A DNA stretch of 64,000 bases, from the NCBI GenBank assembly GCA_028534125.1, contig CM052816.1, positions 56,112,001-56,176,000 on the forward strand. The letters run 5' to 3'. The position numbers and the translations under genes were made by a program. The notes beneath the pieces were generated by a model that worked only from the letters and a program-made list of their open reading frames with translations, ran no database searches and was not told where the DNA came from. Shown here one piece after another: positions 1,679 to 47,139 of this stretch (position 1 is its first letter; each line of letters opens with the position of its first letter). Source of the stretch: Lama glama (lineage: Eukaryota).

Positions 1679-3851
1679 CAGGTATACCTCAGAGAGACTG
1701 TGGGTTGGTTCCAGAGTGAATATCACAATAAAGTGAATCACATGTATTTTTTTGTTTCCCAGTGCATATAAAAGTAAGTTATGTGTATGCTATACTGTAG
1801 TCTGTTAAGTGTGTGATAGCATTATGTCTAAAAAAAACCCCAAACATACCTTAATTAAAAAATAGTTTATTGGTAAAAAATGCTAACCATCATCTGAGCC
1901 TTCAGCGAGTTGCAATCTTTTTGCTGTTGGAGGTCTTGCTTCAATGTAGATGGCTGTTGATTGATCAGGGTAGTGGTTGCTGAAGATTGGGATGGCTGTG
2001 GCCATTTCTTAAATAAGATAGCCATGAAGTTTGCTACATAAATTGACTGACTCTTCCTTCCACTGACAGTTTCTCTGTAGCATGCAATACTGTTTGATAG
2101 CATTTGACATACAGTAGAAATTCTTTCAAAATTGGAGTCAGTCCTCTCAAACCGTCCTGCTGTTTTATCATCTAAGTTTATATAATATTCCAAATCCTTT
2201 GTCATTTCAGTAGTCTTTGCAGTATCTAACCAGGCTTCTCAAGAAGCCGCTTTCTTTTCTTACCCATAATAAGCAACTCCTCATCTATTTAAGTTTTATC
2301 ATGAGATTGCAGCAATTCAGTCACATCTCTGGCACTATCTATGAAAGCTATAGCCTTATGAAATGTATTTCTTAGATAATAATACTTTAAAGTTGAAATG
2401 ACTCCTTGATCCATGGGTGGCAGAATGGATGTTTTATTAGCAGGCATGAAAACAACATGAATTTTGTTGTGTGTCTTAGAGCTCTTGGGTGACCTGGTAC
2501 GTTGTCAGTGAGCAGTCATATTTTGGAAGGCAGCTATGCTCACCACTATACCACCAACGCATGCAGCAGTCATATTTTGAAAGGACTTTTTTTTTCCCCC
2601 TGAGCAGCAGGCCTCAACAATGGGCTTAAAATACTCAGTAAACCATGTCAATAGATGTGCCATCATCCAGGCTTTGTTGTTCCATTTAGAGAGCACAGAC
2701 AGAGTAGATTTAGTATCATTCTTAAGGACCCTAGTATTTTTGCAGAGGAATATGAGCATTGGCTTCACCTTAAAGTTACTACCAGCGGTGTTAGCCCCTA
2801 ACAAAGAGAGTCAGCCCATCCTATGAACCCAGGCATTGACTTCTCTTCTCTGGCTGTGAAAGTTCTAGATGGCATCTTCTTCCAGTAGAAGGCTGTTTTG
2901 TCTCCATTGAAAATCTGTTGTTTACTTTCATTAATGATCTTAGCTAGATCTCCTGGATAACTTCCTGCAGCTTCTGCATCAGTGATGGCTGCTTCACCTG
3001 GCACTGTTACGGAGATGGCTTCTTTCCTTAAACCTCATGAACCAAACTCTGCTAGCTTCAGACTCTTCTTCTGTAGCTTCCTCACCTCTCTCAGCCTTCA
3101 TAGAAATGAAAAGAGTTTTAGGGCCTTCCTATGGATTTGTCTTTGGCTTATGGGCATTGTAGCTGATTTGATCTTCTATCCAGACCACTAAAACGTCCCC
3201 ATATCAGTAATAAGGCTATTTTCCTTTCTTATCATTCATGTGTTCACTAGAGTAGCACTTGACATTTTTTTCAACAACTTTTGCTTTGTATTCCCAAGTT
3301 GGCTAACTGTTTGGCACAAGGGACCTAGCTGTTGGCCTGTCTCAGCTTTCAACACGCTTTTCTCACTGAGTTTAATCGTGTCTGGCTTGACTTAAAGTGA
3401 GAGACATGCGATTCTTCTTTTCACTTGACCACTTAGATCCATCACAGGGTTATTAACTGACCTAATTTCAATATTGTTGTTTCTTAGAGAATAGGGAGGC
3501 AGAGGAGAGAGAGATGGGGGAACAGCTGGTTGGTTGGAGTAATCAGAGCACACATGTTTATCCGTCAGGTTTGCCATCTTATGTAAGTGTAGTTTATGGT
3601 GCCCCCAAACAATTATAATAGTAACATCAACTAGTCCCAGATCACCATAACAAATGTAGTAATAACAAAATAGTTGGAAGTATTTTGAGAATTACCAAAA
3701 TGTGACACAGAGACATGAAGTGAGCAAGTGCTTTGAGAAAAATGGTGCCAGTAGACTTGCTCAACATGGGATTGCCACGAACCTCCCATTAGTAAAACAT
3801 ACTGTCTTTGAAGCACAATAAAGTGAGGTGCAATAAGATAAGGCGTGCCCC
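1679..3851 (-). mobile_element. Tigger1 DNA transposon, near full length, decayed transposase
   Basis: TA|CAGGTATACCTC terminus; ORF fragments [22 protein letters not shown] and [18 protein letters not shown] match Tigger1 transposase. Confidence 0.9.
2523..2560 (-). pseudogene. Tailless retrocopy of tRNA-Gly(TCC) 5' half
   Basis: Minus strand GCGTTGGTGGTATAGTGGTGAGCATAGCTGCCTTCCAA; 15-bp TSD agcagtcatattttg at 2511-2525 and 2565-2579. Confidence 0.9.
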
Positions 3852-4173
3852 CAGTTAAGCCGCTGCCGGGGCCAAGCTGGAAACTCAATTGGCTGTCCTA
3901 GGTGAACTGGGAGGTATGTGCTTTCTAGGAGAACAAGGTCCAGTCAGTACACATAGAGTAAAAGAAAGGTCTAGTTTACATGATTGAAAAGATGGTGATC
4001 AAACTGGAAAATGAGACAGTAAAGAGAACAGATTTGTAAGAAGGTCAAGAAATTGGTTTTGGACCAAACAACAGTTAGTTGGTTCTCTAAGGTGTTACTT
4101 TGTTAACAGATTCCTAAAATTTTGTATTCATCCTTAATAAAACAAGTTGGGATGGTTTACTTTGGTTTTCTAG

Positions 4174-4330
4174 ATTGGAGTCTACTGCACATACATCAGA
4201 GAGCTCAGAAGAATTCTTGGAAGAGGGACCTGAACAGAATGTGATGGAATTTGCAGATGTAAGTAGTGATAAAGATGTTCGGCCAGCACCAGAAACCCAG
4301 CCACGCCTGGAAAAGCAAGATGGTGAAAAG
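4174..4330 (+). CDS. FAM169A: FAM169A (SLAP75) third-last coding exon
   Basis: ttttctag| acceptor, |gtatga donor; translates LESTAHTSESSEEFLEE...EKQDGEK, resembling the FAM169A acidic C-terminal region; ends phase 0. Confidence 0.93.
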
Positions 4331-6850
4331 GTATGAGATTCGCTTATTAAATAAAATGAATGGAAGTAACCAATTTTAACTTTCTTAATCATATATGGTT
4401 AGAAAAGTGCAATGATATATTTTAGACTGTTAGTGGGAATTGGATTTAATGCTAAAAAGCATGTATGTCTGTATTAAGAAAGATCAGGAAGTGTAGGATA
4501 AAGTTACAGGTACTTTATATTTCAAACTGAGCTTATAAAGGTTGACTTACTGAGAACATAAAATAGAGGATGTTTAGATAGCCATGTCCCTCAGTGTATT
4601 TAAGATACAAATTAATTTGTGGAATTAAACATACTTAAGAAGTGACACAAGTGATGTGACTATACAAGGTCTGCCTTATAAAACAAGTTAGAACACTTGG
4701 AGGTTCAACAGGCCCCCCGTTGCACTCCTATTTTGGTTAGAAGGGCAGAATTAGTTGTCCAGAAAAAAATATGTATTTGACCACAATTGACTTATAAATT
4801 CCTGGAGAGATAACTAAATGCATTTCTTTTTTAACACTAGAAGACAAGTAGGAAAATCCTTTGTGACTGAGTAAACTTTTTATCTGGCTTGATTTCTGCA
4901 GCTCCCCAATTATTTGTCCCTTTCTTTCTTCTTCTCTATTTCCTGTCCTGTTCTTCTTCAATATCTTCAGTCTTTCCCTGTCTATAGATTTCTTATTTCT
5001 TCTTTCAGATGTGCTTAAGTTGCTTTAAAAATCGTTTGCGTGTTTGCCAGTCCAGCCAGGAGCCAGTTAAGCAAGTCAAACTGCATTGCCAATTTCACTT
5101 CCTTAACTTGCTCCAGTTTAGCTCTTCTTTCCTCTGCCTCATGAAACTGTATATTTAAATGGCATTTCTTCTTTTGTTGTAGAAAATGGGGAGAAAAGCA
5201 CATATTTTAAAAAGGGATTTATTTGTTTCTAGATGTTTATGGGAATGTGTATTTGTGGGACTTTTTCTCTTTAAAAACTTCAGATTATACTGTATGTACA
5301 TCATGTAACCTGTTTCTTTTGTCCAATGAACTATTGAGCAAATACTCTTACAGGTGACCAGTGACACTTTCATTCAATTCCAGTGGCTTTCCTTACCTCG
5401 ACTGACTACTCTCTCTTCCTCAGCATTCTCTGGTCTGACTTCATAACATGACTGTATTTTTTTTAGTTTTTTCGTTTTCTTGTCTCTGAAGTTTTGGTTT
5501 GGTTTTATTTGTCTGCTTTTTGAGTGTTCTGTTTCCTGTTTTTTTTCCTTATATTTGTGGACGTTCTTGAAGACTCAGTTCTTGACTTCCTGCTCTTTGG
5601 TTCATGCACCTAGTCTAATGGCTCCGTTGTCATCTCTGTGGGGATGACCAGTAACTAGACTTCCAGCACTGATCCAGACTGTAGTCCTATAATGTTACTT
5701 GCCTTCTAAATATTTCTATTTAGACAGATGTCTTTTATCTTAAATTCAGTGTCTCTATTCTTTCCTGTCACTTCAGTATTGAGCCTTTTTTCCTATTTAT
5801 TTTTCATTCTGTTTCCAAACATAAAACTTGAAGGACTGAGTTTTTCTCTCCTGTTGCTTCTCACTTTTAGTTACTCACCAAAATTTTTTGTTTTACAAAA
5901 GCTTTTGCTGTGTTTTTCTCTTTTTCTTTCTTTTAACATTCTCCTACCCTAATTGGTCCTTCTATGAGCTTTATTATAATTACCTTCTGTGTGCAATTTA
6001 TTCTTTATACTACCTGGCCAGATTAATTTTCTAAGTCTCTGATCTCACTATTCCTAGGGAAAATGATTTCAGGGGTCCTATATAATCCATTCAAATCTAT
6101 TTCTTAAAATGAGCGCATCGCTTTTCTAATTTTTAAAATGATAATAAAATAAAATGCCCTCTAATTATTAAAATGTCACTAGGATAAATTAGAAATATTA
6201 GACATTAAATGGAAGTCTTGTTAATCAATAAACCTCGGAGGAAGCAGTTTCAGAAATTGGAAGGTTTGTGTTATCAGATTGCTTTTCCATATTTTAATGG
6301 GATTTAAGGAGCAGGATTGTTCAAAAATGACCCTGGGTTGACTGGACAATGAGCTGACCAAGCCGGGCCTCTCTTCTCCCAGGAGGAAGCTGAAGCCAAC
6401 TCGGCTTCCCTCAGGACTCGTAGTACTTCCTCCCCCCGGCAGTGTGAAGTGCAGCTTCCCACAGGCTCCAAGATTCCAGCTGCTGAACAGCGGATGTTCT
6501 GTTCAGAGCCGGCACCAAATTTAGACTTTCTCTGGTGCCTTTTTACTGAAGTTCTTCTTGTGATTGCCGCATTAGAAGGATGAGCAAGGAGTCAGGGTCA
6601 CTTCACTGAATCTCAGACGCACCCTGGGTCTGCAGGGCATCCCGGTCCTGTCCTCTCTCCACGAGGACAGCGGGGATTTCGGGTGCATATGGACTCTTTT
6701 CTCTTACTGACTCTACTGTTCCTTAACCTGTGCCCTGTGATGTGGTAGAATGTATCTTGAGTTCTGAGGGGAGCTGAGAATGGACCCATCTTGCATGACA
6801 AGTAAGTTAATCTGTAATGTGTCCTGCCTTTTTTCCCCTCTGTGGTGTAG

Positions 6851-7054
6851 GAATCTGAATTAGAGCCCGTGAATGGTGAGATAATGGATGATACTCTTAA
6901 AACTTCACTTATGCCAGAAGAGGAGGACTCCACTAGTGAAGTTTTAGATGAAGAATTAAAATTGCAGTCTTTTAATTCCAGTGAAGATTCTACAAATCTT
7001 GTTCCACTGGTGGTAGAATCTTCAAACCCCCCTGAGGCTGCTACTCAGGATAAG
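6851..7054 (+). CDS. FAM169A: FAM169A penultimate coding exon
   Basis: gtgtag|GAATCT...GATAAG|gtaatg; 204 nt, ESELEPVNGEIMDD...PEAATQDK. Confidence 0.95.
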
Positions 7055-7374
7055 GTAATGGGGGGAAATAACCAAATTTTTTTTATAGTTAGAGTGTTCC
7101 AGTGTTGATGGCTTGGCTGGGGCACTGTAGGATATATATTTGCCTCAACTTTAACATGCACAGTCCTTCTGGAAAATTAAATTATACTAGATTTGGTATT
7201 TTAAGTTGCAGTCAATAATATTCCATATATTTGCATCTTTTGTAACCTTATTCATTCATATCTGGATAAAGCATTATTTACCAAATATTTGAATACCTAT
7301 TGCTTACGTAGTCTCTGACCAACATAGTCATTTTAATTTGTTTTAATTAGGGAGACACTAATTAGACACTAATT

Positions 7375-7430
7375 CACAACACTGTAAAATGATTATGAAT
7401 CAATAAAAAATGTTAAAAAAAACAAAAAAA
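7375..7430 (+). mobile_element. Extremely 5'-truncated young L1 3' tail
   Basis: AATAAA plus A tail; 18-bp TSD actaattagacactaatt at 7357-7374 and 7431-7448. Confidence 0.8.
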
Positions 7431-7496
7431 ACTAATTAGACACTAATTAGATCAGATTAGTGAGGAAAACTTGAATGGAGTATTTTAAAATAAAAT

Positions 7497-7960
7497 TTTT
7501 TTTGAAATAAAGTTGATGTATAACATTATGCGAGTTTCATGTGCGCTGCATAGTGATTTGATTTTGCATACATTGTGAACTGATCACGGTAAGTCTAGTA
7601 ACCGTCTGTCCACCATACAAAGTTGTTACAATATTATTGATCATACTCCTTATGCTGTGTATTATATCCCCATGGCTTGTTTATTTTTATATCTGAAGGT
7701 TTGAACCTCTTAATCTCCTTTACCTGTTTCAGTCCCCTTACTTTCTCCCTTCTGGCAACCATTCATTGTTCTCTTTATCTGAGCCTGTTTTCATCTTGTT
7801 TTGTTTCTTTGTTTTGTTTTTTAGATTTCACATGTAAGTGAGACCCTATGGTGTTTGTCTTTCTCTGACTTACTTCACCTAGCATAATACCCTCTAGGTC
7901 CATCCATGTTGTTGCAAATGGCAAGATTTCATTCTTGTCTTTATGACTGAGTACTATTCG
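7497..7960 (-). mobile_element. L1 3' end fragment
   Basis: L1 3' motifs (tccatccatgttgttgcaaatggcaagatttc). Confidence 0.75.
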
Positions 7961-8495
7961 ATTTTTGTGTGTGTGCGTGTGTATGTATCTAAAAAGAATT
8001 TAATTTTTACTTTTGAATATTCCAATTTAAGGCTAAAAAACTATCATAAAGCATTATTTTTATTAGCGTTTCACATAATTAAGTGAATGCCATTTCCACT
8101 GCCCTCACCTGTCATCTCATAGTCTAAACTCAGTGGGGTGGCATGGTATCAGGTTCCCAGGACTCTTGGTTCTGGCTCCAGGAACACCAAGAGACTAAAA
8201 ACTGAGTTGGTTCTTGGTTTTGAAGAATCTTGATATAAAGTTTAAGTGTCTTAAGTACTTTTTGAGATAAAATTACTTTTACTATATATTTAAAGCAAGA
8301 ATTTAATGTATCCAAATTATCATGCAAGACAGTTTTGAAGAAATTGAGCTGTATTCAGAATATGTGCCCATGCTTAACAAAAGTAATGAGTACTGAATCC
8401 TCTAAAACACAGTTCAGGGTCATTGTGTAGCAGTGTCTGAGAATAATTGATGTAAGAACTATATTGCAAAAGTTCACCAGGTTTTCTGTTTTTAG

Positions 8496-9044
8496 ACTTC
8501 ACGTATAACTGACTCAGAAACCTTGCTAGACGAAGGCCCATCTGATGAAAAAGGGCACACTGAGGAGAAGCTGCCTCTAGTTTCAAGAAAGAAAGCTCAC
8601 TTTGGCAGTTCAGACAACGCTGCTACTATCCCAAATGAAGAACGGTCCGACAGTGGTTTTCCAAACTCTGTGGTCACTGAATTTTCTGAAGAATCGATCT
8701 CTGAAAATGTGTCACCCAACACTACTTCCTCATTGGAAGACCAGGGTGAGGAGGGGGTCCCTGAGCCCCAGGAAACGTCTCCGGCTCTCCCGCAGAGTTC
8801 TTTGATAGAGGTTGAACTTGAGGATGTGCCATTTTCACAGAACGCCGGACAGAAGAACCAGTCAGAGGAGCAGTCCGAAGCATCTTCTGAGCAACTGGAT
8901 CAGTTTACACCATCAGCAGAGAAAACTGTGGATAGCAGCTCAGAGGAGATAGAAGTGGAGGTGCCTGTCGTGGACCGGCGGAATTTAAGAAGAAAGGCCA
9001 AAGGGCACAAAGGACCTGCAAAGAAGAAAGCCAAGCTGACCTGA
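8496..9044 (+). CDS. FAM169A: FAM169A last coding exon
   Basis: tttttag|ACTTCA; 183 codons ending RRKAKGHKGPAKKKAKLT-TGA, the recognisable FAM169A C-terminus. Confidence 0.96.
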   Translation, partial: TSRITDSETLLDEGPSDEKGHTEEKLPLVSRKKAHFGSSDNAATIPNEERSDSGFPNSVVTEFSEESISENVSPNTTSSLEDQGEEGVPEPQETSPALPQSSLIEVELEDVPFSQNAGQKNQSEEQSEASSEQLDQFTPSAEKTVDSSSEEIEVEVPVVDRRNLRRKAKGHKGPAKKKAKLT

Positions 9045-9924
9045 ATAAAGAAGAAATGCAGATGAAAAAGCCTCTTCTTTGTTACGTAATTGTCGTTTTT
9101 AAAATATGGCAACTAATAAATAGCATGGGACACAGGATAAAAATTCCAAATTTTCAATTCGAACTTATTTATGATGCTGTTTTTCCCTCCCCCATAGGAC
9201 CTAGAATTCACTGTTCTTTTTAATTTTTCAGGCTATTTTGTGTAAATACAACTTTTTAATTTTTATTAACCATGTTTCGATTTGGGGAAACCAGATCATA
9301 CTATATTTTCATTAGTAGTTGGGGGCTATCTGACCATTAATATTTCAGAAAATACAAAGTGAAAAACTGAAAGTAGTAGAGTTCCCATCAGTTGTAAGGA
9401 TCACAGAAATCTTTTATACTAAAGGTTTTAATAGTAAATTTGGTGAAGGTTCTAGAAGTTTTATCCTAAATATCAAAACTAATCACCATTTTTTAAAAAC
9501 GTAGGCATGCTTAAACAAAAATGTCAGTAAATTAGGATAAACATAACTTCAACTAAATGAGAGCACAAATTCAGAAATGTGTGGTCAAAGGTTTGTGAAG
9601 GTGGGTATTTTGGCCTTTCAATTCTTAGTTGAAGGTGCAAGTTTCTTCCTTTGACTTCACTCTTTATAACGTCTGGTATTAACAGTACTGCTAGGGATTT
9701 AACTCTGGCATGTCGACAGTATTACTATTTAAAATATCATTTGAAGCCGGGACTACACTTTTGTCCTCACCCAATTAACGTGTATACTTTAGAAGTGTGA
9801 GAACCTTTCCAAAGGCTTCTCCTTAATCTGCCACTGCCTTTATTCTAGAATCTTCTTTATATTCCCCTCAGCTTTCATCCACTTCCCTAACTCATGGAGT
9901 GATTCCTGTCTGAAGATCTGCTTG

Positions 9925-9956
<32 letters not shown>

Positions 9957-12775
9957 CCAGCTTATGTCCTTGGCTTTCATTTTTGGTAGGTTTGGAACTG
10001 CGCCCCACAATCTTAGACTGAGACGGCAGGGATAAGCTACTCTAGGAACCGCAGTTATGAGAACTTAAGTCAGATCAGAGCTTCGTTTGTCCCTTCGGGC
10101 TTACTCCCTCTTGATTTGTTCTGTGAGGGCAGGTTACAAGCAAGCTAGCCTCTGTGTGTACATTGAGTTGCCAGAACAAAGGGCTTTGCCTGGGAAAACT
10201 GAAAGCAAAAAATAAACCCCAAAACCCCCAATTGTTTTTTTTTCTTTTTTTTTTTGTTGTTGTTGAAGTAATTTATTTAAAAATGAACAAAATGGTTATT
10301 CTTATGATCCAAAGAGAATCTTGAAACAATCCTACTTTTTAGACCTATTGTATGTACTCAGATTTTCACTTAAGTTTGAGAATGCTTTGAGATCATTTAG
10401 GTTGTTTTTAAAACTGCTTGGTCCTTAAATGAAAAAAATGTGTTGTGACTTTGTGTCATTATTTGAGGTGCTAAGGATTGACGTTGAAAGTTTATTCAGT
10501 CTACTGTCAGGTGACGTTGTTAAATTTTATTTTGGGATGTTGGCATTTCAGAAAGATTTAAAGTTGAGATGAAATCTTTAGCAGGCAAAATAGCAAACCC
10601 TCCTTATTCATGTAGAATTTTTGAATACTTGTGTCCCCTACATTTTCTTTAGTTTATTGGTCAGAGGTAAGCTAGACCATTTCATTCTAAGTGAAAGTTA
10701 AGCTCTTTGACCATTTGTTTTCTTAACAGATGCTAATCAAGTGAAAGAATAAGTATGACTTAATACTAGTGTATCTATCAAACATTTATGCTGTTTTATA
10801 CATTTTGTGAGAAATTTTTGTTAATACCACAAATAGGGAAATAAAGATTTAGTAAATTCTTAACCTTTTCATTTTTAATTTCTTAAAATAGGTTTAAAAG
10901 CCTAACACTGATTTACTTTTTTACTTGGATTCTTCATTGTTCTCTTTAAAATACTTTCTTTAAAGTATTTTAGTGTATAATTTAAGACTGAGCTCACTGA
11001 CAACTCTTAACATGTGAATAGTCGCTGAGTTTACAAAAAAGGTTAGTTATTCATATATGATCCCTAAGGACTAACAGTATAAACTTATTAAACTTGTTTG
11101 GTTTATTCTTAAACAGTAAGTGCATTTTAAGAAGTTTCAGAACTTTTTGTTTAAGTAAGAAAATTTCTGTCACGTGTCTCTGACAGAATGTTATTTTGGG
11201 GTTTATAGATGGTAGATGAAAAAAAAGTTAGGTCACATGGAAAAACCGAATTTTCGTGTTCCGTAACGACGAGTTCTATACTCAGTAGGTGAGGACAGAC
11301 TTTGTAACAGCATTTATCCTCAATAAGGAATCTAAAGAAAACTTAATCAGATCACTTACACTTTTTGCAAAAGGCATTAAAAAACCTCTGGGAATTCCAG
11401 AGGATTGCAGTCATACTTCAGCCAGATAAGCTAGTTGTTGAGTGTCCAGTCACATTTCTGTAGTCCTTTGTGAACTGCTTTTTTCTGTTTAGAAGTCTCA
11501 TTTGTGGAGAAGGGAAGTTCACTTCAGTTTGTATAAATACGTATATATTTCCTTGTGTAATATAAAGCAGACAGTTATTAGCAAAATTTTAGTTCTACTT
11601 TCAAGTTTAAATTATTCAATTGCTAGACATCACAGAAATATATTGAAGAATTTATTATAAAGTTCCTCTACAACTTTTAAAGGTGAGAGGGTCTATTATG
11701 GTTTTTTATAAAATCAAATAGCATGACAGAATGTCTATCTTCTACTACTTAAAATGTGTCTATATTCATGGTGTTTCCATTCAGTGCAGAGAATTATCAT
11801 GGCAAGGATAAAAATTGCTAGTGATTAATGGTTCACTTTTAGCTGACCACCGAACACCACCTAAAAAGGTTTCAGTGATTGTAGAAAAATATCTTGAAGG
11901 TTTATGATTGCATCAAATTGAGCCTTTACCTAGTATCTAAATACCTGCTCTTACATTCTGCTTTACCCTTAGGGATTACCTTCTAAGGTTTGGTCACACC
12001 AGCAAACTGAAACAGATCTTAATGTAAATAAAAAATTTATACTAACATTACTCATCTGTGTAACAGTATTTTAGAAGTTTCTGCCTTGTATGTCCACTAG
12101 TAGCAATATGATGTTTGAAGTGTTATCCAGTCTTTCATGGGTGTGATTAGTTAAAATGTTAATGCTTCTGTTTGCATACTTAGTATCAAGCTTTATTTGT
12201 ACAAGCTAGTTAACTTGCTTATTTTTGGTTGTGAAAAATAAGCAAACCTCAGTTCTGTATCTAGTGTTTAGCTAATTTCTTTTCTTTCATCCTCCAAAAC
12301 TTGTTATTCACACCTTTCCCATTTCTCTTAGTGGCAAAATCATTTGTTAAACTTTTAAGTGTAAGGAAGGTTAGCTTCTGTTATCTTGAAGTAATTGTGT
12401 CATACTGGATAGCCACTCCGGAGGAACTAGCCTTTCTTTTTCTAAGTGTCTCTGTGTTCTAAAACTTTACTGTGTTTATAGAACTTAGAAAAGATGTTAT
12501 ATTATTCAGAATAGCAAGATTTACTCAAGTACTTATGTTTGTTTTCTTGGTAGTTTTTTTTTTTTTAAACAGTAGTAATTAAATCTATATTTTGTGATTG
12601 TTTCCTGGTCTGTGTTTTGAAATTCCTTCCCTTTCCCCTAATTTCATTGGTGAAGATGTGTTTAGATACTGAGTTTGTTTAGACATTGATTTTTGTTAAT
12701 GGCACAATTTAATCACATTGGTTGTACTTTCAAGACAAGACTTTAAAAAATAAACAGAATTTAAAACAATTAATG
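9045..12775 (+). other. FAM169A: FAM169A long 3'UTR (distal end approximate)
   Basis: Repeat-poor AT-rich stretch after the stop; AATAAA at 9044, 9115 and about 12749; TGTAAATA Pumilio-type motifs at 9241 and 12023. Confidence 0.6.
9923..9958 (+). repeat. (TGCC)9 microsatellite in FAM169A 3'UTR
   Basis: Nine perfect units. Confidence 0.95.
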
Positions 12776-13039
12776 TGATTATAAATTAATGTAATATATA
12801 GGCACCCTAAGTCTCAGTCACAAACGTTAACTCAGATCGTAGACGTGTTTTTGACAACTATATAGCATGACCCTTTTAATGTTATCTAAGTAACTAGATT
12901 TCTCTCTAAGGGTATCAGTGTAGTCTTTTTTAAAGTATTTTACCTGGGATTATTTAAACAAATTTTTACTGTTCTAAAAATATACAACCCTAGGTTTAAA
13001 GTATAGAAAATGCTTAAAGTACAATCATTTTGGTGGGTC

Positions 13040-13242
13040 TTTTTTCTTTTTCTTTTTCTTTTTGAGTAAAGGTAGATTTGTTCAGAAAGATACATACTCC
13101 ATAGACAGAGTGCAGGTTGTTTCAGAAGGCAAGAGAGACAAAGGTCACGAGATGTGGGGGTTGGGTACTTACTTTAAAGTAAAAGTAGATACACACTCCA
13201 TAGACAGAGTGTGGCCCAGCTCATTCAGAAGGGAGAGTGGCC
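13040..13242 (-). mobile_element. Poly(A)-tailed ERV-LTR-like retrocopy with internal duplication
   Basis: T-rich tail 13040-13063; 25-bp repeat 13088-13112 / 13187-13211; flanking cattttggt repeat. Confidence 0.55.
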
Positions 13243-13803
13243 CATTTTGGTTTATTTTTCTCATATGTCTTGAATAGAAAATATAGTTCCAAGTACATGG
13301 TATTATACATGATGAATGAGAGGGGAAAAATGTTTAAAATATTAATTCCCTCCATGACTTACTGTAGGAAAAAGTTAAGGATTAATTAGGGGTAAAAAGT
13401 TTTATCTAAGTTCTTCTGAACTTTATAGTGTAGTGTGCCTTCTCTCATATACTTTTAGTTTATAAAGTATTTTCATTTAAACGTTGTGTTAATGCTGTAT
13501 TTCTTAGGATTCTTAGGATCAGTAATCTACGATGAGGTGGAAGAGACCTTGGGTAGACATGAGTTTCTTGGCCTAGACCTCACATTTAAGTACACACTAA
13601 CCTTTATGATAAAAGGTGTTTTCAACTACAGTGGCTTTTCTAATAATGACAGACCTGCACTGCTTAGTACCACTTATTAATGCAGATACTGAGGAAGCAG
13701 GATATTTCTATAATTGATTTTTTAATCATTCAGTTTTATGGACATCTAAACACTGAACAGACACAAAAGACCAATTTGTAAAACTAGGCCATTTTAATGT
13801 TTG

Positions 13804-13809
13804 TTTATT
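13804..13809 (-). terminator. NSA2: NSA2 poly(A) signal AATAAA
   Basis: tttatt on + strand about 140 nt after the stop codon. Confidence 0.7.
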
Positions 13810-13948
13810 TTATAACAATAAAGTAGTTTTCTTGATGACTACAGACATGTAAGGCTGATTGGCAGTATTCAGAAACATCACAGTAATAGTTTCCTGATTG
13901 AGGTGTAATTTTCAGTAACTATAAGGAGTTATTTGTGTGTAACCGCTA

Positions 13949-14016
13949 TCAAACCAGTAAGACGGCATTTATGCAGCCATCATTTTCAGGGTTGTTGGTA
14001 ACCTGGGCGTATTTTC
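13949..14016 (-). CDS. NSA2: NSA2 exon 6 (last coding)
   Basis: (G)[26 protein letters not shown] acceptor at 14018-14017. Confidence 0.97.
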
Positions 14017-14897
14017 CTAAGGGAAACAAAACAGAAAAAGGAGAGATGTTAGGTAATAATTAACTTTAAAGAATACATATAACCTTTGCCCAAAATATTT
14101 ATAGTTTTAGAAAAGAAAAAATGAACAATAGTAGGATAGGTGAAATTTTATAAAATTAAATCACTCAGGACCAAGCTTGAGTTCCGAATATAATTTTTAT
14201 ATAAATACTGTTTTTACAAATGGCCAACTCCATACTGTTAGCAAGTTGTATTAATAATAAGCCTTTGTGCATTGACCTGAGCATTACTATTGTCCCACAC
14301 CATTCTCACTGGAAAAAGCACCAAGTATTAAGTTTCAACCTATTAACAACCTATTTTAAAATTGAGGACAGCCAACATGAAGTACATGCCAATGACTCGT
14401 TGAAGTTTCAAACTACAGAGTGCATTCTTTTAAAGAATATTAAAGTTTAGAAATATCAGGGTACTAAAAGCAGAAAACTAAGAAAATGAGGAAAAAAATT
14501 TAAATCACTGCATGATGTATTTCAGGTTTAAATTATTACTGAAATAGTGTGGCTATGTTTGATGTTTGCCTCCCTTTCCCCATTCATGGTTATTTTATTG
14601 TATTTTCTAACAGTATTTTTCAGTTATAATCATACTTCCCATCTGCTTTCCTCGTAATGCCTTTTTAAATAAACAGCATCAAAAAATATCTAGCAATGTA
14701 GTATATCTTATATAACTGAAGCCATAACTTAAGAACTGCATTCATAGCTACTTTTTCTACAAAAAGTATTCTTAAAGATTGAAATCTGATTCACATCACG
14801 TTTAACTGCACTAAAATTTGCTTTGTCCTTTGTCAATTTCAGGATTTCTATTTTAGAATTCTAACACCAGTAGCCCCATATTCAAAAATTAACTTAC

Positions 14898-15090
14898 CCC
14901 AGATGACCTTGCCTCCCTGTGTCACAAGGCCCAACTCGCTCACGTTCACTTCAATGACGGTACCTTTGGTGATAACACCCAAGCTCGTGTATAGTGGGGA
15001 TGAGGGATTCTTCTTCACACCAAGTATCGGCAGGCAAAAGGTAGCTTTCAGCTCAGGATGTGTTACGTGGGCCTTCTTGAAACGTAAGCC
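14898..15090 (-). CDS. NSA2: NSA2 exon 5
   Basis: [21 protein letters not shown]...QGGKVIW; canonical AG/GT. Confidence 0.97.
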
Positions 15091-16886
15091 CTAGTAAGTC
15101 AAACACAAGAATGTTTTGAATCGAAAATGTTAAGTATGATGAATAATGATCCTTTTTGCTTATCTTTTCCAATCATTTCCCCATCCCGCCAAAAAAGGAC
15201 TGAATAATGTCCAATCTTAAGGCATCACAGCAAATACTTAGAATTAATCCTACAGACTAAAAACCTGACAGTTACAGGAAAGTATATAGGGAAAACACCC
15301 AAACATGTACTGAAAAGTTTTCACTGTGGAACAGCTAGCCAGCATCATACTCAGATTTTCCTCTATTCAGTTATCTACACTCACTGAAGACTTGCTACAT
15401 ACCAGGCACTCTGCTGGAACTCACAAACAGCTCATTTAAACATGATAACCTTAAAACTCCTCCTATTTTTTTTTAAACTATAAAACAAGGATCAGCAGAT
15501 TAAATGACTTGTTCTCATACTAAACAGTGTGAGGATGGAATCAAACTTAAGTATCCTGATTCCAAGTCTTTGTATGCATCAGCCACCTTTCATGATGAAA
15601 AAGTCTGTCAGCTTTCTTTGTGCTGATGATAATACTGGTCAAAGACGAGAGAGCCCAGAGAGGTCTCTATTACAGACCAGATTCACCCAATCACCTAGGC
15701 ATAGTCTTTCAGGGTAGAGCACTTTAGAAGCCACAATGCTTTGTAGTCTCTTCAATTTGATTTTTGTCTGTATGTGAGTAGGGGGCAAATGACAGTAAAT
15801 CAGATTCTTAGTAATACACTCATTAATCAAGCTTATATACCACTCAGAATGCTATCTGATTAATTCATAGCAAGAAACGTCTGCTAAGCTACAGTAAGTC
15901 TACAACAGCTTGACTAGTATATTTCTCTCCCTGTAGAACTTGATAAGGTTACCAAAATGCATTTAGAAGATTGTGAATATGAAATGAAAACAAGGGGAGT
16001 ACATGATGAGATTCAGGAATGAGTGAACACTTTCTGTAAATGACCAGATAGCGAACATTTTATTTTAGGCTTTGCAGGCCATATGGTCTGTTAGATACTC
16101 AAACTCTGCAAGAAAAAAATAGCCACTGACAATATGTAAATGAATAACCATGGCTGTGTTCTAGCAGAACTTTATTTATAGAAGCAGGCTGTTTGACAAC
16201 ATTTTAATCCATTGAAAATTATTCAGGTTTAAGAGATAGAGTAACACTGCCAACTTTCCTGATTCTTTGTTTTTCTAAGCAAGCTGATATCCAGTTGGGA
16301 GATTAGTTCATTCTGTTTAAAGGGATTTTGCAAAATATATCTTCAGTTATACTTGGGGAGGCAAGGAGGAAATTGGTTTTGACCATCACTGCTGTCAAAA
16401 TATTCAAGTCCCATTTTAGTATTATATTCTCTTTTTTTCAATGATTGCATACTAAGTATTTTCAAAAGCATTAAGATACTTTTGTTACTAAACTGGAATT
16501 AACTTTAAAAAATCCCATTCAAGTTTTCTAACTGTTCACAAAGACAAGTGTCAGGCATATAGTAATCACTTGCTGAATGAGTAAAATGACTTTGTATATG
16601 GAAAAGTGAAGATTCTAAGGTCATGTTTAAAAGTTAGGATTCACTGACAGTCTCTGTAATGAAATTTTTTTTCACCTCTTGTTAACCTGAAGATAAGATT
16701 CTTGATAGTCGTGGAAAAGTTCTAAGCAATTCCTGTGATAACCTAAAATAACAAAAATAGCCTAAAAACATCTTTCAACCTTTTTTTTATGTATCAATTC
16801 TAAGAATATTGGGAAATTGTACATCACTTTATCCAGTTTAACACAGGAAATGATATTTAAACCACTGGGCTCTAGTAGGGACTTAC

Positions 16887-17066
16887 CATTGGCCTAATGA
16901 ATCTTTCATATTTAGGTGGTTTTCGAGTAAAACCATCTCCAACAAAGCAGACTTTAGTAACCATCCTCTTCCAGGCTTTCTTCTTCCTCTTTCCTGTTCG
17001 GATAACTTTTAATACTTCTGTTTCTCCCTGGGCACGAACTTTGGGCAGCGGGACTTCCCATTTTCC
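16887..17066 (-). CDS. NSA2: NSA2 exon 4
   Basis: [15 protein letters not shown]...YERFIRPM; 180 nt, canonical sites. Confidence 0.97.
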
Positions 17067-17131
17067 CTAAAATAGACCACAGTTAAAATTTATAGTTAGT
17101 AAAAGGCAATGAGGATAAAAAATCAAATATG

Positions 17132-17440
17132 AAAATGCTATATATTGCTTATATGTAGAATCTAAAAAAAAAAGGCACAAATGAACCTACCTACAAAACA
17201 GAAACAGACTCACAGACATAGAAAACAATCTTATGGTTGCCAGAGGGTAAAGGGGTGGGAAGGGATAAATTGGGAATTAGAAAATTGCACCTCTTGGGGA
17301 GTGGTGGAAATGTTAGCTATCTTGTTTGCGGTGGTGGTTACTTAGTGTATACATCTATCAAAATTCATCAAACTGTATATCTGAAATATGTATAATTTAC
17401 TGTACAGGAATCATACCACAATAAAGGTATTAAAAGAAAG
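17132..17440 (+). mobile_element. Truncated L1 with variant (chimeric) 3' end
   Basis: L1 3'UTR motifs, AATAAA, TSD tcaaatatg at 17123-17131 and 17441-17449. Confidence 0.75.
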
Positions 17441-18719
17441 TCAAATATGTTTTAGTTGTTCAAAGTAGTAGATTCATTTTTTTTGCTTAACTAACAAGAT
17501 TTTGGCTCTATTGTTTTCTAGAGGTCTGCACCGTCTCCTCAGAAACTCCTAATTAATCAGAACTACTTAAGTTTACATATCGTGGGTACATTAAAAAAAA
17601 AAAGACTTGCCAAAAAACCTTTAATGCCTTGTTATGGACAAAAAATACTGTAATATGGCAGTAATTTCTCTAAGCAGTATGTATGTTTGATATTAAATAG
17701 TAAACAGTGTAAAACTGGAAGACTGTCTCCACCTTTTAACACATCTCTGTACTTCTACGTCGAGTGGATTTTAAGATTACGTTACTAGTAAGAAAATCAT
17801 CACCTGATATTTTGTACGACCCTAGAATGCAAATCCTATGAGAAAACGGAAGCAGTTTAAGGCAGTAGGAAGAATTTTGGACTTATTACTATAAGTCACA
17901 GGTTCCAGAAGCAACTACCATTTCATAGGTAAGTGCCCGTAAGAGTAATTTACAATCTCATGGACTACAGTCTCTTCATCTGTGAAATGAGGAGGAGTTA
18001 AGTAGATAATCTGTAAAGTTTGTTTTGGTCCTAAGTTCTACCGTTCTAATTTTGAAAACTGCATGCCAAAAATTAGCGGTAAGATTTTTAAAATCAAATT
18101 TGAAACCGTAAGTTCTTTAACTATAGATACTGCATATTCCGCTATCTAGATTTCTGTCAACTTATACACAGGTATTTAAAATAGTTTCTATGTCTTTTCC
18201 TTTGCTTTTAGCAGAATTTAACCTAATCTGACACCAAACGCAACCCTATTTTTTTAAAAAACTGGAATTTTTAAGTCAAATCACTTAGGATATTTTCCAC
18301 CATTCTACTTTTTAACCAGTTTTGGCACACTGCAGGATAGAAAAACCAAGAAGCAGATATATCTTTCTACACAAAAATACGTTAGTTGTCAAGTATAGGA
18401 AGCCACTAGAACACTGAATGAGATTCACTGCTTACTTACAACCTTTTTGTTTTTAAATAATTTTTTAAAAAACTAAAGATGTATGGCATTCTAAAATTTT
18501 TAAAAACCCACTGAATGCCAAAATGTTCTGGTGATGAAAAACAGTTTTTATTACTTAAACATTTTATACAAAATGAAATTTACAAAGACTTCAATATCTA
18601 AACAATGAGAATAGTTGGAATTCATTTTTCCAATTAAACTGAAGAAAGAAACCAAGAATCTCAAATTCGAATTTTCCTGAACAACATCAAAAATAAAGAC
18701 TCCAATTTTTATTGCTTAC

Positions 18720-18870
18720 CGCTTTCTCTTTTCTTTTTTGTTTAATCATATTGGAAAGTACTTTAGCTCGGGACTGTCCCTCTCTGTCCAGTAGATATGC
18801 AGGTACTGCTCCTTGTGGAGTCTTTTCATCATTCTTCTGTTTGGTGTTTCTCTTTTCGTGCATCTTGATA
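18720..18870 (-). CDS. NSA2: NSA2 exon 3
   Basis: [12 protein letters not shown]...KQKRKEKA; canonical sites; 92-nt intron upstream. Confidence 0.97.
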
Positions 18871-18962
18871 CTACCAAGAAGGGAAAAGATTCAAGATGAT
18901 CAGTTTTAATAACTGTTACTCAAAAGGTGTTACCTTGATACAACAAATAAATGATCACTTAC

Positions 18963-19150
18963 GTCTTTTTCATTTGTATTTTCTCAGCATGGCGCTGTTT
19001 ATGGTACAGCTTAGCTTTCAGACCAATCATCTTTTTTGCCTTCTTTGAACGTTCATGAGCCTCTCGGCCTTCCTTCTTTCTCTTTTTCTCATGGTAATCC
19101 AAACGGTATCCATAGCGCTTACGGTGTAACTCAATATATTCGTTTTGTGG
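18963..19150 (-). CDS. NSA2: NSA2 exon 2
   Basis: [21 protein letters not shown]...IQMKK, conserved Nsa2 N-terminus. Confidence 0.97.
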
Positions 19151-19774
19151 CTGTAGCAATGCAACAGGCGTTACTTTAATTTTAAAAAACTGCTGACAAA
19201 ATTATTCTTTAATACTTTCTTTTGAGCAGCATATAAAGTACAGAAGATCCAATGTCATCCACCATTCACTTGATTAAGTAACTCTTGCACTATTAAGCCT
19301 ATTCACATGATGTAAGTTTTTTTTTTTTTAACTGAAGTATAGTCAGTTTACACTATGTCAGTTTCTGGTGTACAGCATAATGTTTCAGTATACATGTACG
19401 TACATTTTGATCCTGAATGATATGAGGCATTAAGATTTACATCTGTAGTAATCTCAGTGAAAGTTACTGTTCATTGAAGGGAACTGTCCAAAATCCACCG
19501 GACCACAAAAGGGATAAACTGATTCCAGGATCTCTTTTCTTAATATCAACAATCTTGTTTTTCAGTATCATCATTATTCATACTTCTTATTTAAACATTT
19601 AAAAATTTTACTCAGTTTTATTGAAGTATAATATACATACATACAGTGGAATGTGCCCTTTTCAGGTGTATATATAGAGTTATAAGTTTTGACAAGTTCT
19701 ACAGTTCTGTAATCACAATCAAGACTGAGAATATTTCCAACACCCCAGAAAGTTCCCTTGTGTCACTCTGGTCA

Positions 19775-19809
19775 GCGCCGCTGGTGTAGTGGTATCATGC
19801 AAGATTCCC
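19775..19809 (+). pseudogene. Tailless retrocopy of tRNA-Gly(CCC) 5' half
   Basis: GCGCCGCTGGTGTAGTGGTATCATGCAAGATTCCC; 16-bp TSD cccttgtgtcactctg at 19755-19770 and 19808-19823. Confidence 0.9.
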
Positions 19810-20867
19810 CTTGTGTCACTCTGAAGTCAATCCTCTTTTTCCACCTTCAATTTGGTATCTATTGTTCTAGTTTTGCCTTTCCCAGCAGGAAATGTAAACG
19901 GAACCTACAGTAATGAGGATTTTTCATCTACTTTTTCACTTAGCGTAAGACTTTGAGATCCCCTCATGTTACATATATCCACACTTCAATTTTTAATTAA
20001 CAAGTAGTATCCCACTGTATGGATACACCACCGTTTGTTTATTTATTTACCAAGTGATGGATATTTGGGTTGTTTCCAGTTTTTAGTGAGTAAATACTTG
20101 CACCTAAGTCTTTGTGCGGACATATGCCAAACTGTTTTCAAAGTGGCTGTACTAATTTGCGTTTCACCAACAATGTGTGGGATCTCCTTTTGCTTTTTAA
20201 GTGCCTGTTTTATTTTATACAGTAATGTTTTATTTTAAACATGCGGCTCCATTCCATGTGTACTTTTAAGACTACAAAAATAAAACAATGCAAAGCCAAC
20301 TCCCGTACGGAGAGTAAAGTAACAACGAGGTAGTTGGGATCAGGTGTGGAGTTTTCAACTGCTATCACATAAACTTTGCAGCAACCGTGAGAAAGGTCTG
20401 AAGAATGCCATTTTGCAGAGAAATAGAGATTAAAGATGTAGTAAAAAAGACAGAATCTGGCAGCCCGATTTGGGCTGTATGCTTGGTTCTGCAATTCATT
20501 AGTGGCTTGGCTGGTGACAAGGTGTGCCTTCAGTGTGCTCCGCAGAGATGAGAATCAATGCGAGATTAAATCCTACGGTAGAGTTATCAGTAGGCTCTGA
20601 CACTGATGTCCACACAACTTTCAGCGAAGCCAGGAATTGAATAAAGTGAAACCCGTCTGGCTCCAAAGCCTGTGCTCTGGCAAATACCCGACTCTATGGC
20701 CCCAAAGTGAACGTCTTCACTTTACAGAGCGCACCGCACGGTGTCCACCCTCATTCCCTCAACAGTACCTCACTTCTGCCTACCACCTCTCACTGCCAGC
20801 CCCAGCGCCCTCAAGCCCCGCCAACTCTGATGCCGTCGGTCGCGAGCGCCCGAGGAGACCCTCTCAC

Positions 20868-20870: not shown

Positions 20871-21129
20871 GGTGACGGCCGCCGAGCCGCCGGGTGCAGC
20901 AGCCGGGAAGCGAAGAAGCTCTCAATTTTCGGGTCTCAGAGACCCACGAGCCGACTACACACCACCAGCGACAGGAAAGGGACGCTTCTAAAAAGGCCGA
21001 CTTCAGAGAGAACGCAACGCAGCCGTTCCGACCCTCGGTTCTCCACTTTCAGCTAGAAGTGCGGAAGTTGCTGGCCGGCGGCCTTTGAGTGGGGCACCAC
21101 CGGAAGTGGTGAAGAGCGGCGCTGGCGGA

Positions 21130-21343
21130 AGTGGTAAAGCGCAGCGCCGGCGGAGGCAGAGGGCAAGAGCGGCGCCGGCGCGGGGAGAGCGAAAGAAATT
21201 AGCTTCCCTCCGCCCGTCCCTGGGCGTTCGCTGAGGTAGGGCGTCGCGACAGAAGGCCTTTGCAAGCTTGGGGGCGGCCCGCACCTCCGCTCTCACCAGC
21301 CTGGCGGGAAAAAGCCGGCCTTCGGTATGCGACCGAGTGACAG
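21130..21343 (+). other. GFM2: GFM2 non-coding exon 1 (start approximate)
   Basis: Strong donor CAG|GTGAGT at 21343/21344 (weaker alternative GAG|GTAGGG at 21235) within the island. Confidence 0.65.
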
Positions 21344-30707: not shown

Positions 30708-30841
30708 GTATTTTTTTGGGTGGGGGGCATAATTTGGTTTATTTATTATTTATTTATTTTTTTAACAGAGGTACTGGGGATTGAACCTGGGACCTTGTAC
30801 ACACTAAAGATGCGCTCTACCACTGAGCTATACCCTCCCAC
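30708..30841 (-). mobile_element. tRNA-Ala-derived SINE (vic-1-like)
   Basis: A/B boxes on minus strand; TSD ttcaccaggtg at 30697 and 30842. Confidence 0.85.
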
Positions 30842-36675: not shown

Positions 36676-36790
36676 GGGGGGAGGATGTAGCTCAGTGGTA
36701 GAGTACGTGCATGCATGAGGTCTTAGGCTCAATCCCCAGTGCCTCCATTGAAAAATAAATTAATAAACGTAATTACCTCCCCCCTGCGAA
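36676..36790 (+). mobile_element. tRNA-Ala-derived SINE (vic-1-like)
   Basis: ggatgtagctcagtggtagag...ggctcaatccccagtgcctcca head, A-rich then C-rich tail. Confidence 0.85.
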
Positions 36791-47028: not shown

Positions 47029-47139
47029 CGGGGGAGGAAGGTATAGGTTTTTTTTTTTCTTATGGAGGCACTGGGGATTGAACCCAGGACCTTGTGCATG
47101 TCAAGCATGCACTCTACCACTGAGCTATACCCTTCCCCT
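47029..47139 (-). mobile_element. tRNA-Ala-derived SINE (vic-1-like)
   Basis: Minus-strand head gggtatagctcagtggtagagtgcatgc; flanking tcaaac[a/g]ttta repeat. Confidence 0.85.

Follow-up and report, generated by a model that had tools for sequence, protein, structure and literature searches.

The window analyzed here is a 64,000-nucleotide (nt) stretch of the Lama glama genome (GenBank assembly GCA_028534125.1, contig CM052816.1, positions 56,112,001 to 56,176,000, forward strand). It carries two short copies of the 5' part of a glycine tRNA, one of Gly-TCC (site 1) and one of Gly-CCC (site 2), each flanked by a perfect TSD. The features at the two sites are as follows, in window coordinates.

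2292..3391, minus strand: decayed DNA transposon remnant hosting site 1, with DDE_1 and CENP-B_N Pfam matches (ends not mapped)
2511..2525, no strand: site 1 TSD at the 3' junction of the insert, one half of an exact 15-bp direct repeat
2526..2560, minus strand: site 1 tRNA-Gly-TCC nt 1-35, with 0 mismatches against the assembled genes
2561..2564, minus strand: site 1 5' extension of 4 nt, preceding the mature 5' end
2565..2579, no strand: site 1 TSD at the 5' junction (the original target), exact 15-bp repeat partner
4174..9041, plus strand: final coding exons of the gene that hosts site 1 (acceptor 4173, 1.6 kb downstream of site 1)
19151..20867, minus strand: NSA2 intron 1, host of site 2, with bounds from splice sites
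19755..19770, no strand: site 2 TSD at the 5' junction (the original target), exact 16-bp repeat
19771..19774, plus strand: site 2 pre-tRNA leader of 4 nt, the same 4 nt that precede the Gly-CCC gene at G000:C3:3110994
19775..19809, plus strand: site 2 tRNA-Gly-CCC nt 1-35, ending with the anticodon, with 0 mismatches and its CpGs intact
19808..19823, no strand: site 2 TSD at the 3' junction, exact 16-bp repeat whose first 2 nt are shared with the anticodon

Two 5' tRNA-Gly copies in old intronic repeats

At site 1, 38 of 38 nt are identical to an assembled Gly-TCC gene once the TSD-shared bases 2525-2523 are included. These three bases are C36, A37, and A38 of the tRNA on the minus strand as well as part of the TSD, which gives a priming microhomology of 3 nt. 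The final TSD base could also belong to the leader, making it possibly 5 nt long. This leader has an ending common to three further copies in the genome (L028, L047, and L056) and matches none of the four assembled Gly-TCC genes; it is probably the pre-tRNA leader of a Gly-TCC gene absent from the assembly. The surrounding transposon remnant, which we take to be of the pogo/Tigger type, is interrupted within its transposase DDE domain: matches to Pfam DDE_1 positions 7-72 and 93-147 flank the insert, a CENP-B_N match lies further upstream, and 3 of 6 frames have Pfam matches. This repeat yielded 1009 first-look candidates genome-wide, and all 5 of the 5 aligned paralogs have a single copy of the target and no tRNA.

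The plus-strand gene around site 1 is presumably FAM169A, although none of its six exon frames has a Pfam match. Of its exons, one ends some 450 bp before the window begins and the following one starts at 4174, so site 1 is intronic and antisense to its host.

For site 2, the leader identifies a source: the matching Gly-CCC gene at G000:C3:3110994 is full length. The microhomology here is 2 nt, C35 and C36 in standard numbering. The target lies in an old interspersed repeat, presumably L1M-like, and 4 of 4 aligned paralogs of this repeat lack the tRNA, in an alignment rougher than that for site 1. Site 2 is about 620 bp from the NSA2 intron 1 acceptor and, with NSA2 on the minus strand, is likewise antisense. 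An earlier note on this DNA had described two Gly tRNA 5' parts with 4-nt leaders, anticodon-loop ends, 15- and 16-bp TSDs, and junctional microhomology, both intronic and both antisense; the sequence bears out every structural element, and the exon positions and gene strands agree.

Membership in the tailless tRNA retropseudogene class

Tailless tRNA retropseudogenes were described in 2004 (Schmitz et al., as cited in PMC5322556 and PMC2912911) and in 2015 (Noll et al.). By the published definition they span 30 nt or more, are complete at the 5' end, where as many as 20 nt of precursor are tolerated, and are truncated at the 3' end by at least 10 nt with the break in a loop; the TSD is 8-35 nt long and at least 70% identical, there is no oligo(A) tail, and the last 2-18 nt of the RNA are complementary to the target (PMC5322556). 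Both window inserts are 5' complete, consisting of nt 1-35 plus a 4-nt leader, and lack 34-37 nt of the tRNA 3' part, with the break in the anticodon loop. Their TSDs are perfect (15 and 16 bp) and accompanied by empty-site paralogs, the tRNA directly abuts the TSD without an oligo(A) tail, and target complementarity is 3 and 2 nt. They also resemble the class as catalogued in 2015 in that unprocessed leaders are allowed there, Gly-TCC is among the top sources, and lengths lie mostly in the mid-thirties (PMC5322556).

The target consensus of the class, TT/WAAAAWW, is a statistical logo and not a filter. Site 1 fits it except for a C at the first position. At site 2 the upstream TT is present, but the target is C-rich after it; this departure from the consensus counts against the explanation that we favor.

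We assign both inserts, with a probability of about 0.88, to the neutral tailless tRNA retropseudogenes, ordinary by-products of L1 activity that arose in two independent events close together by chance. Both are true insertions into disposable sequence, the old repeats. That L1 ORF2p was the enzyme is suggested by the TSD length and the A-rich class consensus, and the inserts are probably neutral. A segmental duplication or assembly artifact is ruled out by the different isoacceptors, unrelated flanks, perfect TSDs, and empty paralogs. Each insert is far beyond chance, given that the reversed-pattern control produced 0 matches; Rfam and ARAGORN did not detect the tRNA halves.

Three related kinds of element differ from the window inserts. 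tRNA-derived SINEs, of which the window holds three copies, are also tRNA related, mobilized in trans, and TSD forming. They carry both Pol III promoter boxes and an A-rich tail and are self-amplifying, whereas at both sites the T-arm half, and with it box B, and the tail are absent, leaving one-off copies of tRNA gene transcripts. The tRNA/LINE-1 chimeric insertions (PMC13174262) share tRNA up to about nt 1-37, a TSD of 9-19 bp, and attribution to L1 ORF2p, but they are fused to L1, mostly antisense to it, and no L1 lies between the TSDs of the window sites. Sperm 5' tRNA halves and tsRNAs overlap the inserts in sequence, end in the anticodon loop, and prominently include Gly isoacceptors; in PMC11740426 tsRNA fractions are given as 30-34 nt long, beginning at the mature end, whereas the window copies have leaders and end at 36-38. 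A mature half would begin at the mature 5' end, and instead we find a genomic leader at site 2 and a probable leader at site 1.

We next turn to the 2.35-Gb assembly, which was surveyed with 35-mer patterns, a design that cannot see fragments of 30-34 nt; DNA searches list nothing below about 55 bits, so short or diverged 30-34-nt fragments may be missed there as well. With up to 3 mismatches allowed, the Gly-TCC 35-mer has 160 matches (control, 0), and the 3' half accompanies only 4 of these 160 places, leaving about 156 halves, a few of which are assembly duplicates. Of 92 places fetched from the 160, we dropped 4 duplicates and one gene; the 87 analyzed comprise 3 genes and 84 5'-only halves, and 79 of the 84 have a TSD (median, 16 bp). 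Therefore, the architecture shared by the two window sites is that of the class. For Gly-CCC there are 20 matches, with 2 genes and, after merging five small contigs of one locus, 14 distinct halves (13 with a TSD). His-GTG has 29 matches, including 8 genes, and 19 distinct halves among 26 examined (18 with a TSD). Asp-GTC has 11 matches with 2 halves, as judged by alignment span, and 2 of 26 Trp-CCA rows of the DNA search are 5' only.

The human list contains 666 tRNA cases, led by Cys-GCA (71), Gly-TCC (67), Gln-CTG (66), Met-CAT (60), and Ile-TAT (51); Gly accounts for 96 of the 666, with 16 Gly-CCC and 13 Gly-GCC, next to 15 Asp, 9 His, and 7 Trp (PMC5322556). Gly-TCC is thus among the three commonest human classes, and its enrichment is shared with human. 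List S1 of that study covers 15 species other than the present one; relative to it, Gly-TCC appears denser here and the site 2 target is C-rich. Our literature searches found no camel-focused study of tailless tRNA copies, which is not proof of absence. Each mammalian genome holds hundreds of such copies, and adding two gives the locus itself little importance, but both inserts are usable as clean presence/absence markers. Fourteen public sequencing runs share at least half of the sequence words around site 2, which speaks neither for nor against its presence in related animals.

Priming register and the nature of the template

To define the register of priming, we aligned each original target to the tRNA. 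For Gly-TCC, 69 copies were in register and 10 with extra junction bases were set aside; target and tRNA agree at C36 in 63 of 69, at A37 in 66, at A38 in 42, and at G39 in 13, with pyrimidines just upstream. The 14 His-GTG copies in register (4 set aside) agree at U35 in 14, at G36 in 13, and at G37 in none, and 6 of the 7 Gly-CCC copies in register (6 set aside) agree at C36. From these counts it follows that the nicked DNA end pairs over 2-3 nt that include the last anticodon base. Gly-TCC targets have A at 37 more often than His targets do (P = 0.003), and the Gly-TCC template therefore extended at least to A37. At position 38 there is no such difference (P = 1.0), and a preference for cutting A-rich sites may be all that the A there reflects. 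Among the 17 Gly-CCC rows and 18 His rows, which come from searches listing nothing below about 55 bits, no half ends before position 36.

These registers are consistent with a scheme in which L1 ORF2p would nick genomic DNA and the freed 3' end would anneal to 2-3 nt on the 3' side of the anticodon loop, at position 36 plus A37/A38 where these fit. The template would be a nuclear pre-tRNA, probably intact, with its leader still attached. Reverse transcription would then reach the 5' end of the RNA, and a second nick 15-16 bp away would create the TSD. Under such a scheme Gly-TCC may be favored because its C36-A37-A38 fits the A-rich sites cut by L1.

The leaders bear on the template. Apparent Gly-TCC leaders range from 0 to 12 nt, which rules out a universal 4-nt leader; the 4-nt extension that the earlier note took as a shared rule occurs in only 9 of 79 copies. 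The leader that occurs most often on Gly-TCC copies (19 of 79) is not that of any assembled gene, a hint of a highly expressed source missing from the assembly. Among Gly-CCC copies, 5 of 13 have 4-nt leaders, and all four copies of the C3 gene begin at -4, as would be expected of a fixed Pol III start. Seven His copies have leaders of 18-21 nt. Since leaders are present at both window sites, the simplest template there is a nuclear pre-tRNA primed in the loop, and the proposal that mature, sperm-type tRNA halves were the source loses ground.

A somewhat unlikely variant keeps the same class but has a pre-cut template, either a leader-bearing pre-tRNA fragment or a mature 5' half ending at 36-37, in place of an intact tRNA primed internally. 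Several junction details would suit it. Ends are sharp, with 16 of 18 His rows stopping exactly at 36, and of the 13 TSD-bearing Gly-CCC copies, 4 show 1-7 additional C at the junction, as though the enzyme had slipped on reaching a template end. A G is added at -1 to mature tRNA-His, and a lone G at -1 that resembles it is found in 4 of 18 His copies, although none of the 8 assembled His genes encodes it. Halves have also been proposed as templates for the tRNA/L1 chimeras (PMC13174262). On the other side, the leaders at both window sites disagree with a pre-cut mature half, and Gly-TCC targets match through A37. For 5S and U2, matching truncated RNAs and tailed intermediates were not found and internal priming was favored (Noll et al., PMC5322556). 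Gly-GCC, the most cited sperm half, ranks last among the Gly classes of the human list (13 of 96). Internal priming of a pre-tRNA thus remains our reading of the two window sites, and pre-cut templates are possible for a subset of copies.

A broader combination, which we hold to be unlikely, would join an anticodon-priming rule (the nicked DNA end pairing at position 36 as a codon would), gene-specific Pol III starts, a subset of copies from cut mature halves (the His G-1 and Gly-CCC C-runs), and a true 3-fold or so rise of Gly-TCC in this lineage. If it were true, tailless tRNA copies would preserve germline tRNA fragments as a heritable fossil record. The genome-wide junction registers, leaders, and C-runs bear on internal priming, favored in PMC5322556, versus pre-cut halves, suggested in PMC13174262, and these junction statistics are the only part of this analysis that deserves a specialist's second look. 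Junction C-runs and isoacceptor-wise registers do not appear in the portion of PMC5322556 seen, and Schmitz et al. (2004) may already report such details.

Density, proximity, and orientation of the copies

The earlier note had read the pair as a sign of a lineage pathway, possibly a burst of tRNA-half retroposition. A recently active pathway is supported by the 46 perfect Gly-TCC 35-mer matches. The inference from shared architecture holds only in part: Gly-TCC is indeed overrepresented, but the architecture is that of a known class and Gly-TCC is a top class in human too. Gly-TCC copies number about 66 per Gb here versus 23 per Gb in the human list, roughly 3-fold denser by methods that differ, whereas Gly-CCC is equal (6.0 versus 5.5 per Gb). 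Among five isoacceptors, Gly-TCC makes up 80% here and 59% in human (P = 7e-5, from unlike methods and with 20 His halves used), and any "Gly bias" rests on these five, Gly-TCC, Gly-CCC, His-GTG, Asp-GTC, and Trp-CCA.

A lineage-specific burst visible as local density is, on balance, quite improbable. The higher Gly-TCC density, the mismatch classes, and the commonest leader, with its hint of a highly expressed source, would favor one. For 0, 1, and 2-3 mismatches these classes hold 54, 40, and 62 copies, with 11 copies credited to a variant gene, and perfect copies are mildly more numerous than equal classes would give (P = 0.01). Yet the classes fall gently without a peak, only 2 halves each of Asp and Trp make these two rarer here, and Gly-CCC is no denser. 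Moreover, four boreoeutherians (cow, dog, human, and mouse) differ 3.6- to 5.7-fold in the densities per Gb published for 5S and U2 tailless copies, a spread that covers the Gly-TCC difference. The data support continuing, perhaps modestly raised activity and not a distinct pathway.

Chance also accounts for the local density. With 170 Gly halves placed randomly, 0.21 pairs are expected within 17.3 kb (P = 0.19 for any two Gly copies), which gives the pair no support as a burst signal. Narrower classes give lower chance values, 0.032 for a Gly-TCC with a Gly-CCC and 0.002 for two perfect copies of these kinds, both defined post hoc; a human-sized set of 666 copies of all kinds would be expected to give 3.3 pairs within 17.3 kb. 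On human chr6, an Ile-TAT and a Gly-TCC element of the list are separated by 15.9 kb (PMC5322556). Among 104 listed places in the llama genome, no two lie nearer to each other than the window pair (within 20 kb, 1 pair observed versus 0.11 expected). Observed and expected pairs are 5 and 2.7 within 500 kb, 6 and 5.4 within 1 Mb, and 12 and 10.7 within 2 Mb, with no excess clustering at 1-2 Mb among these places. The pairing of the two sites does not clearly exceed what chance allows, and a mildly lucky coincidence like this one is to be met in a genome scan.

It is very improbable that the inserts function as nuclear tsRNA target sites in the two pre-mRNAs, the remaining suggestion of the earlier note. 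Each host transcript could pair with the tRNA 5' part in a predicted duplex of 34 bp without mismatches (about -71 kcal/mol), and mouse sperm is reported in a review to contain fragments of Gly-GCC, -TCC, and -CCC. That complementarity, however, is given by construction in any antisense copy and follows from the origin of the insert. Both inserts are young, lie in old repeats, and are 0.6-1.6 kb from the nearest splice site, and the human list has no Gly element near the presumed human counterpart locus. As far as the sequence indicates, no result points to use as tsRNA targets. The shared orientation also has a simple background: the canonical TT/AAAA motif has no strand bias in two of the three host-gene stretches of the window, but across all three the Gly-TCC target motif is found at 170 antisense and 99 sense positions (63% antisense), and because of this bias the probability that both inserts are antisense is about 0.4, compared with 0.25 without it.

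Leaders and junctions of the tRNA 5'-half copies

The tailless His-GTG copies recovered in the genome-wide census are of two kinds. One is mature-like, with a single G at -1, the base just before the mature tRNA start, that is not encoded by the assembled genes (copies L137, L144, L152 and L168), while the other is of precursor type and carries genomic leaders of 18 to 21 nt (L143, L148, L149, L154, L155, L170 and L171). Nearly all His-GTG copies end at G36.

The most frequent leader ending among Gly-TCC copies genome-wide (19/79) matches none of the four assembled Gly-TCC genes, implying that expressed source genes are absent from the assembly. These absent genes perhaps belong to a collapsed tDNA array.

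Extra C, 1 to 7 nt in length, separates the anticodon from the target site duplication in 4 of the 13 Gly-CCC copies in the Lama glama assembly (L082, L085, L089 and L091, all outside the window). These C runs suggest slippage of reverse transcriptase on the CCC anticodon during priming. A common leader ending that differs from both present-day Gly-CCC genes is found in L087, L089, L092 and L095, which are older and more diverged among the Gly-CCC copies; this ending is perhaps a trace of the flank in an ancestor, or of a gene since lost.

Quality of the assembly

On several unplaced scaffolds (G000:C92398, C105730, C55592, C83510, C394591, C101286 and C97953), the same match occurs twice, in opposite orientation, near both scaffold ends, which suggests mirror-duplicated assembly. 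Multiple identical matches to a variant Trp tRNA lie on many contigs of <500 bp, very small contigs that may represent redundant fragments or foreign DNA within the assembly.

Other features of the window

Three tRNA-derived SINE copies with A-rich tails are present:

47063-47134, minus strand, copy 1
30768-30836, minus strand, copy 2
36682-36747, plus strand, copy 3

Both ARAGORN and Rfam called copy 1 as tRNA-Val; this call is probably a miscalled SINE head.

The CpG island upstream of NSA2, the minus-strand host gene of the Gly-CCC insert, contains a 25-bp tandem repeat (21101-21196) that is rich in GC and carries CGGAAG motifs. The divergent gene expected at this island is presumably GFM2, and the motifs are possible Ets-type sites of a bidirectional promoter.
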